In this document: piece by piece, positions 31,123 to 59,461 of the stretch | How the letters are laid out: each line of letters starts with the position of its first letter | Numbering within the stretch: the first letter of the stretch is position 1 | Source of the DNA: Blastocatellia bacterium | GTDB taxonomy: Bacteria; Acidobacteriota; Blastocatellia; UBA7656 | Reading direction: 5' to 3' | Assembly (NCBI GenBank): GCA_045807765.1 | Contig: JBJMGU010000271.1 | Span: 1,200 to 65,199 of the forward strand | DNA: 64,000 nt | The notes under the pieces: generated by a model | What the model was told of the DNA's origin: nothing | Seen by the model: only the letters and a program-made list of their open reading frames with translations | Database searches by the model: none | Made by a program: the position numbers and the translations under genes

Positions 31123-32391
31123 ATGAACATACTGGTCATCGGCTCTGGCGGGCGCGAGCATGCGCTCTGCTGGAAGCTCAAACAATCGCCGCGCACCACA
31201 GCGCTCTTCTGCGCGCCCGGCAACGCCGGCATCGCCAGGATCGCCGACTGCTTGCCCGCCGATGTGAAGGATGCGGGCAGCCTCGCCAACCTCGCCGAAG
31301 CCATCAAAGCCGACCTCACCATCATTGGCCCTGAAGCGCCGCTGGTCGCTGGCATCAGTGAAGCCTTTCAGGCGCGCGGCCTCAGACTGGTCGGCCCATC
31401 TGCCGACGCAGCACGGCTCGAAGGCAGCAAGATTTTCGCCAAGCAGTTCATGGCACGTCACCAGATTCCCACGGCGCAATTTACTGCCTGTCATTCGCCC
31501 GAATCGGCGCGCGCCGCGCGTGAGCTTGAATTTCGCTTCCCCGTCGTCATCAAAGCCGACGGATTGGCCGCCGGCAAGGGCGTGCGAATCGCTCAAAATG
31601 AAAGCGAGTTCGACGCCGCGATTCAAGACTTGATGGTTGACCGCATCTTCGGCGACGCCGGGACGCGCATCGTCCTCGAAGAATGTCTTGTCGGGCGCGA
31701 AGCCTCTGTGATGATCTTTACAGACGGGCTGGATTACAAAGTGATCGCCCCGGCGCAGGACTACAAGCGCGTCAATGATCATGACGAAGGGCCGAACACC
31801 GGCGGCATGGGGGCGTTTTCGATGCCGGGGCTGATTGACGAAGCGACGATGGCTCGCATCCGTGCTGAAGTGATCGAGCCGGCGCTCGCCGGATTGCGCG
31901 CTGAAGGTTATCCGTTCAAGGGCTTCCTCTACGCCGGTCTGATGTTGACCGCTGACGGCCCGAAGGTCATCGAGTTCAACGCACGCCTGGGCGACCCGGA
32001 GACTCAGCCCATCCTGATGCGCCTCGATAGCGATCTGGTTGACATCTGCGAAGCCATTGTCGACAGGCGTATCGGCGCAACCGAAGTGCGCTGGAGCGAT
32101 GATGCGACGGTGTGTGTCGTCGCGGCGTCGGGCGGTTATCCCGGCGATTTTGAGAAGGGCAAGGCCATAAGCGGGCTTGATGAAGCGGGCGCGGTCGAGG
32201 GCGTCGTCGTCTTTCATGCCGGCACGGCGCGCGATACAGGCGGCGGCCTCGTGACCTCAGGCGGGCGCGTGCTGGGCGTCACGGCGTGGGCGGCGTCGCT
32301 CGAATCGGCGCGGGCGCGGGCTTACGAAGCAATAGGCAAGATTCACTTCGAGCGAATGCACTATCGCAAAGACATTGCCGCGCAAGGATGA
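31123..32391 (+). CDS. purD: Phosphoribosylamine--glycine ligase
   Basis: MNILVIGSGGREHALCWKL... is the classic PurD N-terminus. ATP-grasp fold, about 422 aa. Confidence 0.9.
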   Translation: MNILVIGSGGREHALCWKLKQSPRTTALFCAPGNAGIARIADCLPADVKDAGSLANLAEAIKADLTIIGPEAPLVAGISEAFQARGLRLVGPSADAARLEGSKIFAKQFMARHQIPTAQFTACHSPESARAARELEFRFPVVIKADGLAAGKGVRIAQNESEFDAAIQDLMVDRIFGDAGTRIVLEECLVGREASVMIFTDGLDYKVIAPAQDYKRVNDHDEGPNTGGMGAFSMPGLIDEATMARIRAEVIEPALAGLRAEGYPFKGFLYAGLMLTADGPKVIEFNARLGDPETQPILMRLDSDLVDICEAIVDRRIGATEVRWSDDATVCVVAASGGYPGDFEKGKAISGLDEAGAVEGVVVFHAGTARDTGGGLVTSGGRVLGVTAWAASLESARARAYEAIGKIHFERMHYRKDIAAQG

Positions 32392-32419
32392 GCTATCCGA
32401 ACCATCGCGAGCGGATCAT

Positions 32420-33361
32420 ATGATGAAAATCACTCGACCGATCACTTTTACCGCATCGTTGCTGCTATCGCTCGCTCTCTGCGCCATGGCGCAGACCGTC
32501 GGCCCGCGTCCGCTGACCCCGGCGACCATGCCTCTGGGCGACCGTATGCGCAAAGAGCTGGCCGAGTTCAAAGGCAAGGCCACTTTATTCGCCAAGAATC
32601 TCGACAGCGGCGCGAGCTTTGGCGTCGGCGAAGACCAGCGCGTCAGCACCGCCAGCACCATCAAAGTCACAGTGATGATCGAAGCCTTTGCCCGCGTCGC
32701 CGAAGGCAAAGCGAAATGGCGCGACGAAGTCGTGCTGACGGACGCCAAGAAAGTTGGCGGCTCAGGCATTCTGCATGACCTCTCGGATGGCCTGCGCCTC
32801 AGCCTGCGCGACGCCGTCACCTTGATGATGACGATCAGTGACAACACGGCGACCAACCTGGTGCTGGACTTTCTCGGCATTGATACGGTGAACGCCCGCA
32901 TGGAATCGCTCGGGCTGCACCAGACGCGTGTGCTGCGCAAAGCCTTCGGCGGCGGTACAAGCCGCGCGGGCGAAGACCCTGCGCTCAAGCCTTACGGATT
33001 GGGCGTGACGACGCCGCGCGAGATGGTGACGTTGTTGGAAAAGCTGGAACGCGGCGAGGTGATCAGCCGCGAAGCATCACAAGAGATGCTGGCGCTGATG
33101 AAGCGCGAGCAGATGCACGACGGCATCGGGCGGACGTTGAACGGCGTCGAGATGGCGACCAAGTCGGGCGCGCTCGATCAACTGCGCAGCAACGTCGGCA
33201 TCATCTACACCAGGCGTGGTCGCATCGCGATGGCGATTACCTGTAATGACATGCCGGAGGTTGATTGGACAGAAGAGAATGCCGGCCTGCTGATGCTGTC
33301 GCGGCTGTCGCTCATCCTCATGGATGGGCTAGGGCAATCGCCCGCTGACCCACATCGGTAA
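32420..33361 (+). CDS. Class A beta-lactamase-related serine hydrolase (secreted)
   Basis: Signal peptide MMKITRPITFTASLLLSLALCAMAQ. Class A motifs STIKV (SxxK), SDN (ISDNTATN) and KSG (ATKSGA). Confidence 0.75.
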   Translation: MMKITRPITFTASLLLSLALCAMAQTVGPRPLTPATMPLGDRMRKELAEFKGKATLFAKNLDSGASFGVGEDQRVSTASTIKVTVMIEAFARVAEGKAKWRDEVVLTDAKKVGGSGILHDLSDGLRLSLRDAVTLMMTISDNTATNLVLDFLGIDTVNARMESLGLHQTRVLRKAFGGGTSRAGEDPALKPYGLGVTTPREMVTLLEKLERGEVISREASQEMLALMKREQMHDGIGRTLNGVEMATKSGALDQLRSNVGIIYTRRGRIAMAITCNDMPEVDWTEENAGLLMLSRLSLILMDGLGQSPADPHR

Positions 33362-33363
33362 GT

Positions 33364-33409
33364 CCCGGCGTTGAAAAGCCGGGCTAAATTCATTGCGCCG
33401 CTACGCGGC
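33364..33409. other. Conserved ~46-nt two-hairpin intergenic element, copy A (copy B at 58883-58929)
   Basis: cccggcg TTGAAAAGCC gggCTAAAtTCATtgcGCCGCtACGCGGC. About 85% identical to copy B. Hairpin 1 is CCCGGC/GCCGGG, with compensatory variation in copy B. Hairpin 2 is GCCGC-NAC-GCGGC. Confidence 0.4.
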
Positions 33410-33447
33410 GACAAACATTGCGAACGCAATGGAGCTCGTTAACTCAA

Positions 33448-33804
33448 TTACTTCGGCTCGACCGCGCCGCCGACATCGAGCCATGCATCGAAGCCGCCTT
33501 CTAAGGCATATGACCGCTGGAAATCATGATCACGGAGTACTTGCGCCACACGGGCGCTTGAGCCTTCGTGCGGTCAGGTGCAATAAGTCACGATCATGCG
33601 GTTGCGCGGCATGTCGGCCAGATGTTGCTCGATTGCATCAGCCGGCACACGCACCGCGCCCGGCAAGCGCGTGTCGGCGGCGGCCCAGGCTTGCGGGTTG
33701 CGCGCGTCAACGAAGTAAACCGCTTCGCCGCGATTCATTCTATCGATCACATCGCTCGCCGAGATTCGCAAAGGCTCTGGCGCATTCTGCACATTGGCGC
33801 TCAT
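33448..33804 (-). CDS. Single-domain rhodanese-like sulfurtransferase with an in-frame TGA at 33576-33574: candidate selenoprotein (Sec at the catalytic position) or nonsense pseudogene
   Basis: The ORF track ends at ...MIVTYCT*. Reading through the TGA in the same frame continues PHEGSSARVAQVLRDHDFQRSYALEGGFDAWLDVGGAVEPK* to a TAA at 33450-33448. The downstream segment aligns with the GlpE catalytic segment (quoted from memory) (C)YHGNSSKGAAQYL...DGGFEAW, with the TGA at the catalytic Cys column. Confidence 0.6.
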
Positions 33805-34031
33805 TTGTGTTACCTCCTGGATGAATTCGCGCTCATCTGAAATTAAAAGGCAATCACTATACCGCGCGCCCGCGGCGTCTGGGTCAACACGGCGCGTCAG
33901 GTTGTATGGTTCGCGCGCTCAGGCTGTCCGATTCGCCGCCATTGACACTGCCTCTGAAGCTCAACTATCATCGGGATTAATGCATTTGACTCGTCTGCGA
34001 ATGCCTTTGACCTTTAGCCAAGGAGAAGCGA

Positions 34032-46918: not shown

Positions 46919-49900
46919 TCACCGCCCTTTCTTCTTGTGCTTACCCTTTCTTTGCTTGCTAGTCGGGGGTATCCGAAAACCCGGCATCTTTCTCAAAAGT
47001 TCCTGCCTCTGCTCTCTAACCCTTTCGTAACTCGGATGGTCACTGGGAAGCCCCCGAAAGTAATCCTCAATAGTCTGCCGTGCTTCGAGGCGGCGATTTA
47101 GCTGAAAAAGAGAGTACATCACACCCACTACAGAATTAGCCGTATCAGGATGATGCTCTCCAAGTAAATCTCTGCGAATCTCCAGCCCCTTCTGCAGAAA
47201 CTCTAGTGCCCGCTTGTGGTCGCCGAGAGCGCTATAGGTACTACCAACGTTGTTGAACGACAAGGCGGTGTCAGGATGCTTGTCGCCGAACAGCTCCTGG
47301 CGAATCTCCAGCGCCCTTTGTTTAAGCTCCAGCGCCCGCTTGTGATCGCCGAGATCGCCATAAGTGCCGCCGACGTTGTCGAATGATGTGGCGGTGTCAG
47401 GATGCCTGTCGCCAAACAGCTCCTGGCGAATCTCCAGCGCTTTCTGCAGAAATTCCAGTGCGCGCTTGTGATCGCCGAGCTTACCATAACTGCTGCCAAC
47501 GTTGTTGAATGACGCGGCAGTGTCAGGATGCTTGTCGCCAAATAGCTTCTGCTGAATCTCCAGCGCTTTCTGCAGAAATTCCAGTGCGCGCTTGTGATCG
47601 CCGAGCTTACCATAACTGCTGCCAACGTTGTTGAATGACGCGGCAGTGTCAGGATGCTTGTCGCCAAACAGCTCCTGGCGAATCTCCAGCGCCTTCTGCT
47701 GAAACTCCAGCGCCCGCTTGTAATCGCCCAAAGCGGAATAACTAAAGCCAAGATCGTTTAATATATGTGCTTTCAACGCCAAATCGCTGATATTGCTTTG
47801 TTCGAAGGCTGCCCATGCTTTTTCAAGCTGCGTACGAACATCGTGGTAGCGTCCGTGATGATACGACGGATATGCTTGTAGCCACATCAAATGACTTTCG
47901 TATTTCGGCGCATATGCTGAGGCATGTTGCTCCCACGCTTGCAGGTGGTCAATCTCGCTCTCAAAAAACGGTAATTGATTGAACTCTACTCGCTTATCTT
48001 CAAACCATTTTGCCATCCGCTCACAGATTGTAGCTATCCAACTCTCCTGGCCTTTTAGTGGAACATCTTCACGCCGAACTTCGCGCACGAGCCGGTGAAT
48101 GGCATAGCTTTCTGCGGCAAGGGTCTTTTGTAGCAACCGAAGTGCAGTGCCGAGACTCAACGCGCCAGTCAATTCAGCCGGATTCGGAATATCAAGTAGT
48201 GCGCACATCAAAGATAAGCTCATCGGTGCGGAACCGCTCCACGTCAATAAATTCAGAATGTCGCGTAGTAACGGCTCGTCTTGAAAAATCCCCTCGTTGA
48301 TCTTTAGCGTCGAGTAAATGTCTTTTTCATGCTTGGTGAAGCTGCCCAGGAATTTGCCCGAAAGGGCCGCTTTGACGTTCTGTTGTAGAAGTTCCAGGTA
48401 CTGTCGCCAGGGTAGTTGCCGATAGCGGACGTAGGCCCCTGCCAGTTCAAGCGCCAGTGGGAGGCCATCTAACATTCCGGCGATTTCCCTTGCCGCTCGC
48501 GCTTCGTCTTCTCCGGCGGGCGTTTGCTCACGTCCCGCTTCCTGTAACAATAGCTTGAGCGAAAGCTCATGATCTAATAGCTTCAGTTGAACAGGCTTGA
48601 ATCCTGGTTGCTCAAGCCGGCTTGTGATGAGAATGTGGGGGCTGGCTTGCGGCTCAGGCAAGTATGGTTCGATGGCATTGGTCGCTTCAACGTTATCGAA
48701 CACCAGCAGACAATCCGAGTAAGTGCGTATACGTTGCAGGGCAATCTCCAGCTTATATTTATGCTCGGATTCCGGTGCAACCCACCGGGCTTTCTCGGCA
48801 ATGTGGATCAATTGCGAATCAATATCCTGGTCTGCATTCACCCAGATGACACCATTGGGGTATTCATTCTGAAAGCGATACGTATACTCGACGGCGAGTT
48901 GAGTCTTACCTAACCCGCCTAGCCCTTGAAACGCGGCGGTCTGGCCGATCACCGTGCGGCGGCCATTGGTGAGCTGCTCGCGCACTGCCAAAATGGTTTC
49001 CTCGCGTCCAACCACCTGAGTGCCCTTTTGCGGAAAAGGAACGTAGAAGACTGGATTGCGGGGATCGTAGGATGCGATTGGCTGACTACGAGGCGGATCG
49101 GTTTGCTCTGGCTCTGGTTTTTTTCTTGCTGGACCTGCTGCGGCAGCAACCCTGCTCAACTCACGTACTCCCTCTAGCAGCGGTAAGCCGTAATCCGCAA
49201 CCGTGACTGGCTCTACTGGCAGAGCCAATCTCTGTATATTCTCGCGCTCGGCGGCGCGAGTCAGAACGTAATGCGGGCCGGTTGTGCCATTGAAGATGTC
49301 GCTGATGCCGCGCAATTGCACACCGAAATAGGCATCATCGAGGCTGAAGCCGATAAACAAGAATGTGTGCGAGGCCATCAATTGATGCAATGTTGCCAGA
49401 GCTGCCCGGTAGCGGTGTTCAGCTTCTCCCACTTCAGGATAAAGCCGACGATAGCCATCAGGAGTTAGAATCAAATTCGTTGCGTTATGAATATAGCCAT
49501 GAAGATGCCAGACCGTTGGGTGATTTATCTCTCCGCGCAGTAAGCCACTCTGTTCAGCCGGAGCCTCAATGTCCCAAACCACCAGATCATCACGCTGAGG
49601 GCATGCCCAGTGCAGCACACGATCATAGTTGGTAGTAATAACAAGCTGGCTCCCTAATTGCCATACCGCTCTTGCTAGATCAAGACTGCTATCATCAGCG
49701 TCCTTGCTCCTGCGATCAAGATGCTCCTTAATGAACTGAAACCAAACCGGGCCTAATCCTTGCCGCGCCCGCCTTGCCGCATCGAGGTAATCAGGAGGCT
49801 CAATCTGCAATAGGCCACGCACTGTATTTGCATAAGGCGACTTCTTTTCTTCATCAAGCCGGTCTGCCGCTGCCTCAAGCAGATTCTTCCAACTAGGGAA

Positions 49901-50008
49901 AAGGCGCTCGCCATGCTTATCCTTGACGGCCATAGAAACGCCTGCACCAACAAAGGGAATCACTTTGCCTTCGCGAAGACGTTCACCCAATGTTCTTGGA
50001 ATATCCAT
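46919..50008 (-). CDS. STAND protein: N-terminal SIR2-like domain, NB-ARC-type NTPase and C-terminal TPR repeats (antiphage-STAND-like architecture)
   Basis: SIR2_2-like GKVIPFVGAGVS; P-loop GLGGLGKTQLAVEY; Walker B CLLVFDNVE. At least five 42-aa TPR units (ALEIRQELFGDKHPDTA...). The gene sits in a lower-GC island. Confidence 0.85.
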   Translation of the reverse strand: MDIPRTLGERLREGKVIPFVGAGVSMAVKDKHGERLFPSWKNLLEAAADRLDEEKKSPYANTVRGLLQIEPPDYLDAARRARQGLGPVWFQFIKEHLDRRSKDADDSSLDLARAVWQLGSQLVITTNYDRVLHWACPQRDDLVVWDIEAPAEQSGLLRGEINHPTVWHLHGYIHNATNLILTPDGYRRLYPEVGEAEHRYRAALATLHQLMASHTFLFIGFSLDDAYFGVQLRGISDIFNGTTGPHYVLTRAAERENIQRLALPVEPVTVADYGLPLLEGVRELSRVAAAAGPARKKPEPEQTDPPRSQPIASYDPRNPVFYVPFPQKGTQVVGREETILAVREQLTNGRRTVIGQTAAFQGLGGLGKTQLAVEYTYRFQNEYPNGVIWVNADQDIDSQLIHIAEKARWVAPESEHKYKLEIALQRIRTYSDCLLVFDNVEATNAIEPYLPEPQASPHILITSRLEQPGFKPVQLKLLDHELSLKLLLQEAGREQTPAGEDEARAAREIAGMLDGLPLALELAGAYVRYRQLPWRQYLELLQQNVKAALSGKFLGSFTKHEKDIYSTLKINEGIFQDEPLLRDILNLLTWSGSAPMSLSLMCALLDIPNPAELTGALSLGTALRLLQKTLAAESYAIHRLVREVRREDVPLKGQESWIATICERMAKWFEDKRVEFNQLPFFESEIDHLQAWEQHASAYAPKYESHLMWLQAYPSYHHGRYHDVRTQLEKAWAAFEQSNISDLALKAHILNDLGFSYSALGDYKRALEFQQKALEIRQELFGDKHPDTAASFNNVGSSYGKLGDHKRALEFLQKALEIQQKLFGDKHPDTAASFNNVGSSYGKLGDHKRALEFLQKALEIRQELFGDRHPDTATSFDNVGGTYGDLGDHKRALELKQRALEIRQELFGDKHPDTALSFNNVGSTYSALGDHKRALEFLQKGLEIRRDLLGEHHPDTANSVVGVMYSLFQLNRRLEARQTIEDYFRGLPSDHPSYERVREQRQELLRKMPGFRIPPTSKQRKGKHKKKGR
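47160..47770. repeat. 126-bp tandem DNA repeats (about 5 copies; copies at 47453-47578 and 47579-47704 near-identical) encoding the TPR units of the STAND protein
   Basis: cgcttgtg(g/a)tcgccgag recurs at 47202, 47327, 47453, 47579 and 47705. The two central copies differ at only about 8 positions. Confidence 0.8.
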
Positions 50009-58647: not shown

Positions 58648-58839
58648 TCACATGGTGTGCATTTTTATAAGCCGTTTGATATCTGGAAAATTCGTTACCA
58701 GCCCATAGGCAAGAGCTGCCAGCGTTGTGCCGCCGATGATTTTCCAGACAAGGTGGTTTGACGATGTCTTTTTGTGAAAAAGGTCCATACTGTAAATTCT
58801 CCCCTTCCAAGAATCACTCACAGCACCACACCTTTCCAC
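58648..58839 (-). CDS. Possible small membrane protein (45-63 aa) in an AT-rich patch
   Basis: ORF with a hydrophobic segment IIGGTTLAALAYGLV. Weak coding evidence, low GC. Confidence 0.3.
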   Translation of the reverse strand: MERCGAVSDSWKGRIYSMDLFHKKTSSNHLVWKIIGGTTLAALAYGLVTNFPDIKRLIKMHTM

Positions 58840-58882
58840 GGTACTTTAACAATAGACTCTTTTGAGTGATTCAATCAATCTT

Positions 58883-58929
58883 ACCGGCTTTGAAAAGCCG
58901 GCCTAAACTCATCCCGCCGCGACGCGGCT
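58883..58929. other. Conserved two-hairpin intergenic element, copy B (copy A at 33364-33409)
   Basis: accggct TTGAAAAGCC ggcCTAAAcTCATcccGCCGCgACGCGGC. It sits 16 nt downstream of the hydrogenase protease stop codon. Confidence 0.4.
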
Positions 58930-58945: not shown

Positions 58946-59461
58946 TCAACACGCCGCCCGCTGCCGGCTCTCGTTAAGAATCCCGGCGATCAACGACTCG
59001 ACTACGTGAACCGCATCAGTGACGGCGGCTTCGACCACTTCGCTCAAGCCTAGTTGTCCTTCTTCGGGGCCGAGCGTCGCCGGCTCGCAGCCGACCAGCA
59101 AGATGCGCTTGAACTCGCCGCCCATCGCCTTGACCATCGCCAGCACTTTCATTGGATTCATGCCGTGCGGCTCGACCAGCGCGGCTTGCGCGTCTAATTC
59201 GGCCAGCTCACTCAAGTCAGGCTCGATGGTGTAGAGTGTGCCGGGCTCGGCGCCGCGCGGCGTCGCATCAATAAAAATCGTTACGTCGTAGCCGTCCATC
59301 AGCGCATAGGCGAGATCAAAGCCGCGGATGCCGAAATCAACGACGCGCACTTCACAGGGCTGCGAGCGGCTGGCTAGCTGCCGCGCCACTTCCGAGCCGA
59401 AGCCGTCATCACCGAGAAAGATATTGCCGATGCCGGCGATCAGAATGTGTGGCTGTGTCAT
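58946..59461 (-). CDS. Hydrogenase maturation protease (HyaD/HybD/HupD family)
   Basis: MTQPHILIAGIGNIFLGDDGFGSEVARQL is the classic N-terminus (Asp/Gly motif) of [NiFe]-hydrogenase C-terminal processing endopeptidases. Confidence 0.85.
   Translation of the reverse strand: MTQPHILIAGIGNIFLGDDGFGSEVARQLASRSQPCEVRVVDFGIRGFDLAYALMDGYDVTIFIDATPRGAEPGTLYTIEPDLSELAELDAQAALVEPHGMNPMKVLAMVKAMGGEFKRILLVGCEPATLGPEEGQLGLSEVVEAAVTDAVHVVESLIAGILNESRQRAAC

Follow-up and report, generated by a model that had tools for sequence, protein, structure and literature searches.

Two copies of an element of about 46 nt, each able to fold into two hairpins, lie close to the stop codons of two unrelated genes in a 64,000-nt stretch of DNA from a Blastocatellia bacterium (the window), and an earlier note on this DNA offered two readings of them, a structural RNA motif of 3' untranslated regions or a small dispersed repeat. 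We asked which of these the copies, here called A and B, represent. Both were found where the note had placed them, and they differ at 7 of 46 positions, in agreement with its figure of about 85% identity; alignment showed that their likeness stops a few bases outside the two hairpins. The 23-nt core that they share (TTGAAAAGCCGGNCTAAANTCAT) was counted twice in the window, whereas 100 dinucleotide-preserving shuffles gave an expectation of 0.00. Both copies folded into the described two-hairpin structure on either strand (z = -2.7 to -3.6), and covariation among further copies, given below, supports this structure. However, the compensatory change that the note had read in hairpin 1 did not hold, as the outermost pair is C-G in copy A and A.C in copy B, so that the pair is lost. 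The positions of the copies, of their parts and of the neighbouring genes are collected in Table 1.

Table 1. Coordinates of copies A and B, of adjoining genes, and of direct repeats found around doublets of one subfamily in related loci (positions with an L number refer to those loci, all others to the window)
Feature	Position	Strand	Description
Copy A	33364-33410	+	Complete two-hairpin module, one solo arm
Copy A hairpin 1	33364-33383	+	CCCGGC / GTTGAAAA / GCCGGG, 6 bp, predicted fold
Copy A linker	33384-33395	+	CTAAATTCATTG, conserved, single-stranded
Copy A hairpin 2	33396-33410	+	CGCCGC / TAC / GCGGCG, 6 bp, predicted fold
Copy B	58883-58929	+	Second solo arm of the repeat family
Copy B hairpin 1	58884-58901	+	CCGGCTT / TGAA / AAGCCGG, 7 bp, fold and alignment
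Copy B hairpin 2	58916-58928	+	GCCGC / GAC / GCGGC, 5 bp, fold and alignment
Serine hydrolase gene	32375-33361	+	Class-A beta-lactamase-like; stop 33359-33361
Rhodanese gene	33448-33804	minus	Stop 33448-33450
Hydrogenase maturation protease gene	58946-59461	minus	Stop 58946-58948
Small ORF	58648-58788	minus	46-aa DUF6893; copy B lies just upstream of its conserved leader
Direct repeats, tailed subfamily	L004:5060-5480		ATTAATC
Direct repeats, tailed subfamily	L032:723-1143		ATTATGT
Direct repeats, tailed subfamily	L034:4171-4311		ACGTAATA
Direct repeats, tailed subfamily	L021:4438-4654		AAGTAA

Copy A sits between two convergent genes, those of the serine hydrolase and the rhodanese, and starts 2 nt past the stop codon of the serine hydrolase gene, a neighbour that the earlier note overlooked. 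The distances given there to the minus-strand genes were reproduced, with copy A 37-38 nt from the rhodanese stop and copy B 16 nt from the protease stop, and the orientation relative to that gene is alike in both. No U-tract follows A or B, as had been stated, and neither copy was called as a terminator on either strand; nor was a promoter-like site or a canonical terminator found at or overlapping A or B. The proteins encoded next to the copies had their best matches in Blastocatellia MAGs, one of them at 100% identity. The stretch that separates copy A from the rhodanese stop contains a weak hairpin that resembles a terminator and has a T-rich tail (33421-33438, minus strand; CGAGCTCCATTGCGTTCG CAATGTTTGT); it may be the actual rhodanese terminator. 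On the side of copy B, about 90 nt between the copy and the DUF6893 gene (58789-58882, minus strand; GTTGATTGAATCACTC...GGTGTGATGCTGTGAGTGATTCT...GGAGA) are strongly conserved in all four genomes compared, including those free of the element, and gave no Rfam match; this block could be a promoter or leader element.

When one genome per species was searched for the exact core, 36 loci were returned, 31 of which are in MAGs of Blastocatellia, Pyrinomonadaceae or Chloracidobacterium, and the remaining five, from other phyla, are evident chance matches; 12 exact-core matches lie within one MAG. The test that the earlier note had suggested, a search for more copies and for covariation, was run with a covariance model (R1) built from 35 copies, mostly from other genomes, and it returned many copies and strong covariation, so that the proposal of a family stood. 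R1 identified 59 strong single copies (arms) in 233 kb of acidobacterial loci, and the further family members recovered from acidobacterial and metagenomic loci exceed 200. Almost all arms are paired with an inverted arm at a distance of 80-170 nt, in a constant internal arrangement, and the complete unit is an inverted doublet of about 200-235 nt. Read inward, the doublet comprises an outer hairpin (GCCGC-GTA-GCGGC type), the linker ATGANTTTAG, hairpin 1, about 22 variable nt, an inner hairpin (CGTCGC-GTCA-GCGACG type) and a short centre (ATTGAAT...ATTCAAT), after which the mirror image follows.

Copies A and B (R1 scores 71.2 bits, E 4e-18, and 66.2 bits, E 1e-16, respectively) represent only the core of such a unit, made up of the outer hairpin, linker and hairpin 1 of a single arm; hairpin 2 of copy A is the outer hairpin of a full arm. 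A search of the 64-kb window with R1, filters off, found A and B only, with no partner arm and no third copy, and no diverged copies or simple palindromes of the hairpin 2 type were found elsewhere in the window. No inner hairpin was found beside A or B, no direct repeats flanking them were seen in the sequence read, and tblastn detected no Y1 transposase gene in the 64 kb. Two candidate remnants of the remainder of a doublet were considered and rejected: a supposed decayed inner hairpin in the 3' end of the serine hydrolase gene (33336-33359, CAATCGCCCGCTGAC...) is conserved coding sequence in relatives free of the element, and TTGAGTGATTCAATC to the left of copy B, a possible remnant of a doublet centre, is part of the conserved DUF6893 leader and is likewise present in element-free relatives.

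All 33 family copies that were examined for context are intergenic, often filling the entire gap; the flanking genes form a tandem pair in 21 cases, a convergent pair in 4 and a divergent pair in 4, and members of the family are found in either orientation. Given these varied settings, the orientation that A and B have in common is not a family trait. Some arms are arranged in head-to-tail arrays with a period of about 69-74 nt (L108:12-217, 3 copies; L053:1918-2252, 5 copies; L122:3612-3775, 2-3 copies), which resemble BIME clusters and the Lentisphaera arrays of the Rfam seed discussed below. Short tandem repeats of another kind adjoin some doublets, of the (CTTGAAAC) type in MAG MNJR01 (L011:2340-2400, L017:575-620, and L033 on the reverse strand) and of the (AAAGGACAGGATTAA)n type at L122:3398-3450.

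Real covariation became visible only with many more copies than A and B. In a set of 148 distinct arms, the alignment of which was fitted to the model and so favours structure, yet leaves a large margin, 96.1% of base-pair cells were standard, both sides had changed in 10 of 14 pairs, and double-change cells numbered 316, against 72 +/- 12 in shuffles. The covariation score was 0.417, compared with 0.104 for shuffled alignments (0 of 500 reached the observed value), and slid partners scored at most 0.071. Variants of the hairpin 1 stem included CCCGGC/GCCGGG, CCGTG./.CACGG and CCAGGC/GCCTGG, across which the hairpin 1 loop (TTGAAA) and the CTAAA that follows were constant, and alignment columns 41-52 of hairpin 2 held CG in 57, UA in 56 and AU in 29 of the arms. 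The CTAAA and TCAT motifs were invariant in the 35 copies, partly because the search pattern demanded them, and were 80-99% conserved in the 148 arms. When pairs were counted in the Rfam orientation, hairpin 1 showed 4 G.T versus 45 A.C, the latter mostly in one column, and hairpin 2 showed the opposite trend (9 G.T versus 5 A.C); taken together, the counts favour neither strand. Covariation combined with a fixed loop fits an RNA and, equally, a DNA hairpin that is read by an HUH enzyme.

The arms were found to flank a transposase gene. At loci L008 and L003, two arms about 670-730 nt apart enclose a 150-aa ORF, and their outer hairpins face away from the gene. The encoded protein matched Pfam PF01797 (Y1_Tnp, 1.9e-26) and NCBIfam NF033573 (IS200/IS605, 1.5e-20), and its best PDB match was the ISHp608 transposase (5e-11), with the HUH and catalytic Tyr motifs aligned; the IMG cluster name, "REP element-mobilizing transposase RayT", is a generic COG label. 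In an independent set of 80 metagenomic loci, which were fetched through the protein alone, R1 detected 198 arms in 230 kb. A minus-oriented arm lay within 200 nt upstream of the start codon in 63 of the 69 genes with enough sequence (median 62 nt), and a plus-oriented arm lay within 200 nt downstream of the stop codon in 49 of 66 such genes (median 42 nt). At least one arm was present at 54 of the 55 genes that were testable, and both arms at 37 of these. The motifs DH[IVL]H, WQ and Y[IV]..Q..HH were found together in 72 of 74 transposase proteins, and 59 of the 74 ORFs were intact, 58 of them of 150 aa and one of 151 aa.

Quentin et al. (2018, PMC6006769) described a TnpA-Y1 subclass 1.2 whose signature consists of DH[IV]H, WQ, a Y motif of the YIKNQKEHH type and a length of about 148 aa, and the flanked transposase carries this signature, a putative assignment made by motifs and length. 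Enzymes of this subclass were reported to be of low copy number, without IS-type ends, with REP scored as "no", and to occur mainly in Cyanobacteria and Bacteroidetes (PMC6006769). In contrast to the subclass as published, for which no repeats are given, the genes found here are from Acidobacteria and have clear cognate arms. Doublets without a gene are far commoner than gene-bearing units (25 were found in relatives) and look like internal-deletion derivatives of the gene-bearing unit.

When the window was searched against Rfam at the gathering threshold, no match was obtained. Under an E-value cutoff, copy A nevertheless matched Acido-Lenti-1 (RF01687) with 30.8 bits (E ~1e-5; the threshold is 37) over model positions 1-46 of 46 and with both stems paired; for copy B no match was reported at E<=1, and it has the same layout as the two-hairpin architecture with conserved linker of RF01687. 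In that architecture an 8-bp stem closed by a tetraloop is joined through a GCUAAnUnAU linker to a second hairpin, of 5 bp and with a 3-nt loop, in the same 46-nt layout as the family described here, and the RF01687 seed includes Acidobacteria, soil sequences close to this family, and clustered copies. Among 40 related loci scanned (40 sources at the gathering threshold: 38 metagenomic or L003/L008 Y1 loci, plus L122), 17 arms passed the curated threshold of 37 bits, with scores of 46.1 in L077, 45.8 in L068, 42.7 in L097, 39.4 in L122 and 38.6 in L003. Above-threshold arms lie directly beside the transposase gene in L077, L068, L097, L003 and L071, and the one in L122 is at the orthologous site of copy A. 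A and B are sub-threshold members of the known Acido-Lenti-1 motif and of a REP-like repeat class, a feature that is real but ordinary.

Weinberg et al. (2010, PMC2864571) reported 89 Acido-Lenti-1 representatives from Acidobacteria, Lentisphaera and soil, rated the motif as "probably RNA" and not cis-regulatory, and noted that it is sometimes found near group II introns in Lentisphaera, which is a loose link. In Rfam and in that paper the motif is described as a trans-acting small RNA of unknown function, whereas the doublets, the inner hairpins and the Y1 transposase that we describe are not mentioned there. A literature search found no paper tying Acido-Lenti-1 to transposases, and its link to a Y1 transposase of subclass 1.2 thus appears to be unreported.

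The family has much in common with the REP, BIME and REPIN sequences and RAYT transposases of E. coli and of the Pseudomonas REPtrons: both are short extragenic palindromes of high copy number, both include tandem clusters and singlet remnants, and in both, as in REPtrons, a Y1 HUH transposase gene is enclosed by copies in inverted arrangement, with gene-free copies far in the majority. Inverted doublets, the usual form of REPs, are also the prevailing form in the relatives examined here, whereas A and B in the window have no partner. However, REPs have a GT[AG]G foot, whereas neither GTAG nor GTGG stands at either stem foot in the consensus of this family, in which GTAG occurs only in the hairpin 2 loop, on the complementary strand. 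REP arms also have one hairpin, compared with three per arm here, and class 2 RAYTs (TnpA-REP) have a Y...NP motif where the transposase found here has an IS200-like Y...Q..HH (72 of 74 proteins, compared with the table in PMC6006769). The PDB search with the 150-aa protein did not return the E. coli RAYT. Because the enzyme is IS200-like and the GT[AG]G foot is lacking, this family is not a canonical REP/RAYT system.

Other relatives were compared in the same manner. The TIRtrons and their TIRYT proteins (Di Nocera et al. 2013, PMC3733652) and the class 3 TnpA-Y1 genes of Solibacter, which have atypical hairpins (PMC6006769), resemble this family in that long, partly self-complementary inverted repeats flank acidobacterial tyrosine transposase genes; the repeats flanking TIRYT and class 3 genes can form repeat families (PMC3733652, PMC6006769). 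Identity with the acidobacterial TIRYTs was considered and rejected, since TIRYT proteins have Y...NP and are therefore different enzymes, the two being set apart by their protein motifs alone. Class 3 TnpA-Y1 is distinguished likewise by protein motif, with YV..EQ (PMC6006769) unlike the Y...Q..HH found here. Elements of the IS200/IS605 family have in common with ours a Y1 HUH transposase of about 150 aa, hairpin-based ends and short derivatives without a gene, but they carry unlike hairpins at their left and right ends, both on one strand, and lack terminal inverted repeats, whereas the ends described here are inverted repeats of about 60-95 nt.

Comparison of orthologous sites bore on the behaviour of the arms over time. 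At the site of copy A, a full doublet and two more arms lie between the serine hydrolase and rhodanese genes of L122 (neighbouring protein 81% identical), and the last of these arms aligns with copy A and occupies the corresponding position ahead of the rhodanese stop. In L121 (83% identical) the rhodanese gene is present and an unrelated spacer takes the place of the arm, and in L117-L120 (87-93% identical) the arm and the rhodanese gene are both absent, in one clean indel of about 580 nt. This indel spans positions 33362-33941 of the window (the arm, the rhodanese gene and its upstream region), and one of its edges falls exactly at the serine hydrolase stop codon. At the site of copy B, a decayed arm (7 bits) was found in L123 (88% identical), which keeps hairpin 1 by means of a T.G pair on the mRNA-sense strand; no arm was found in L124 and L125. 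The presence, decay and absence of arms at fixed sites point to a mobile or formerly mobile repeat. The orthologous-site comparison shows A and B to be old. Counting against inactive remnants, their sequences are still near-consensus (71 and 66 bits), which fits either a recent origin or selection for a host function.

We weighed these results against readings in which the transposase has no leading part. If the element were a functional structured RNA (the 'sRNA' of Rfam), or an mRNA stabiliser or terminator of 3' untranslated regions, the link to the transposase would be secondary. The strong covariation in both hairpins is in keeping with this, as are the rating by Weinberg et al. as 'probably RNA' (PMC2864571), the placement of A and B 16-38 nt past stop codons in like orientation to the upstream gene, the excess of A.C over G.T in hairpin 1 (45 versus 4 in the Rfam orientation), by which the mRNA-sense strand would fold better, and the retention of hairpin 1 through a T.G pair on the mRNA-sense strand in the decayed ortholog in L123. 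However, covariation is equally expected of DNA hairpins that HUH enzymes read, and the A.C excess is due largely to a single column and is opposed by the trend in hairpin 2. The arms, moreover, occur in both orientations, as inverted doublets and tandem arrays and between tandem, convergent and divergent gene pairs alike; they flank the transposase gene at fixed distances, are gained and lost at orthologous sites, and, at A and B, are without a promoter-like site or canonical terminator. We consider a functional RNA unlikely on balance.

Were the element a classical MITE, mobilised through its long terminal inverted repeats by a DDE transposase and with the Y1 gene as a passenger or nested insertion, this would account for those repeats and for four doublets, of a subfamily with ends extending to ...GCAC...CTTCA, that are flanked by differing short direct repeats (Table 1). 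In this tailed subfamily the arms extend to ...TTTATGCAC...CTTCA, and the direct repeats, of 6-8 bp, look like target-site duplications; Y1 transposition is not known to make such duplications. Over 83 doublets, however, flanking direct repeats showed no excess (11 observed, about 8 expected), so that target-site duplications are not enriched across the family; direct repeats are also absent around A and B. In addition, no DDE transposase was seen between or beside the arms, whereas the Y1 gene is flanked by at least one arm in nearly every testable locus (54 of 55), which leaves a MITE with a small residual probability in our estimation. That the likeness of A and B is due to chance, or that they are two unrelated GC-rich terminator hairpins, has nothing in its favour beyond the shortness of the element, and the core observed twice where none was expected, the E values of 4e-18 (A) and 1e-16 (B) against a model built mostly from other genomes, and the more than 200 further family members make it negligible.

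The reading that we prefer, and regard as probable, takes A and B to be solo arms of a dispersed Blastocatellia repeat of the REP/REPIN-like type, the core module of which is Acido-Lenti-1 and the hairpins of which a Y1 enzyme would recognise. They are thus most likely remnants of mobile DNA and not a new RNA regulator. Of the two readings in the earlier note, the dispersed repeat was upheld, in that hundreds of copies are present in Blastocatellia genomes and soil metagenomes, mostly as inverted doublets, and the same arms flank a Y1 gene; the 3'-UTR motif is not needed, given both orientations, the varied gene pairs and the presence or absence of arms between relatives. By analogy to IS200/IS605 and REP/RAYT, the hairpins and the conserved bases of the loop and linker would be single-stranded DNA recognition features for Y1 cutting and rejoining, and recognition of this kind would account for covariation in the stems next to an unchanging loop and linker. 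The adjacency of arms and gene suggests that the Y1 enzyme moves or amplifies the doublets. As the window holds no transposase gene and no partner arm, the link for A and B themselves rests on relatives, and the lack of a partner arm, an inner hairpin or a nearby transposase suggests that they are most likely what is left, now immobile, of older doublets or clusters.

A secondary role in the host is conceivable. REPs of E. coli act as 3'-end stabilising or pausing hairpins, and A and B, which lie just past stop codons and would be transcribed, might speculatively act in the same way, as secondary 3'-end hairpins of the neighbouring transcripts.

We put forward more tentatively, and short of thinking it probable, that Acido-Lenti-1 as a whole is the DNA recognition module of a REPtron/REPIN-type system with a TnpA-Y1 subclass 1.2 enzyme. 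If this were true, it would constitute a new and structurally more complex pairing of REP and transposase, in which each arm has three hairpins, the GTAG foot is lacking and the enzyme is IS200-like and not RAYT-like; the pairing would be widespread among soil Acidobacteria and might extend to the other phyla of the Rfam seed. A role as the ends of a Y1-transposase unit would offer a testable account of a motif that has been an orphan in Rfam since 2010, cognate repeats would be known for a Y1 subclass believed to be free of them, and a defined pair of protein and DNA would now be open to biochemistry. The case also cautions that covariation in short hairpins can stem from recognition by HUH enzymes at the DNA level and not from RNA function. 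For the window itself the consequence is small, namely that A and B should be annotated as Acido-Lenti-1-like or REP-like repeats.

Two further observations were made in the window. The rhodanese gene has an in-frame TGA at 33574-33576, within the active-site loop (..IVTYCT-TGA-PHEGSSARVA..), beyond which the frame is conserved, and the same TGA is present in two relatives, L121 and L122, in which gene callers report the gene in separate pieces. The gene is a candidate for a selenocysteine-containing rhodanese; a hairpin (GCGCC-CGUGU-GGCGC) is located about 20 nt downstream of the TGA, in a region that folds no better than shuffles. The second observation concerns a 126-nt tandem repeat at 47302-47728, present in at least three copies of 85-86% identity, that encodes 42-aa repeats which are TPR-like by eye (...ALEFLQKALEIRQELFGDKHPDTA...). 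It lies inside a 1029-aa ORF (46919-50008, minus strand), in the part of the window with the lowest GC content (0.53-0.57 at 46-52 kb).
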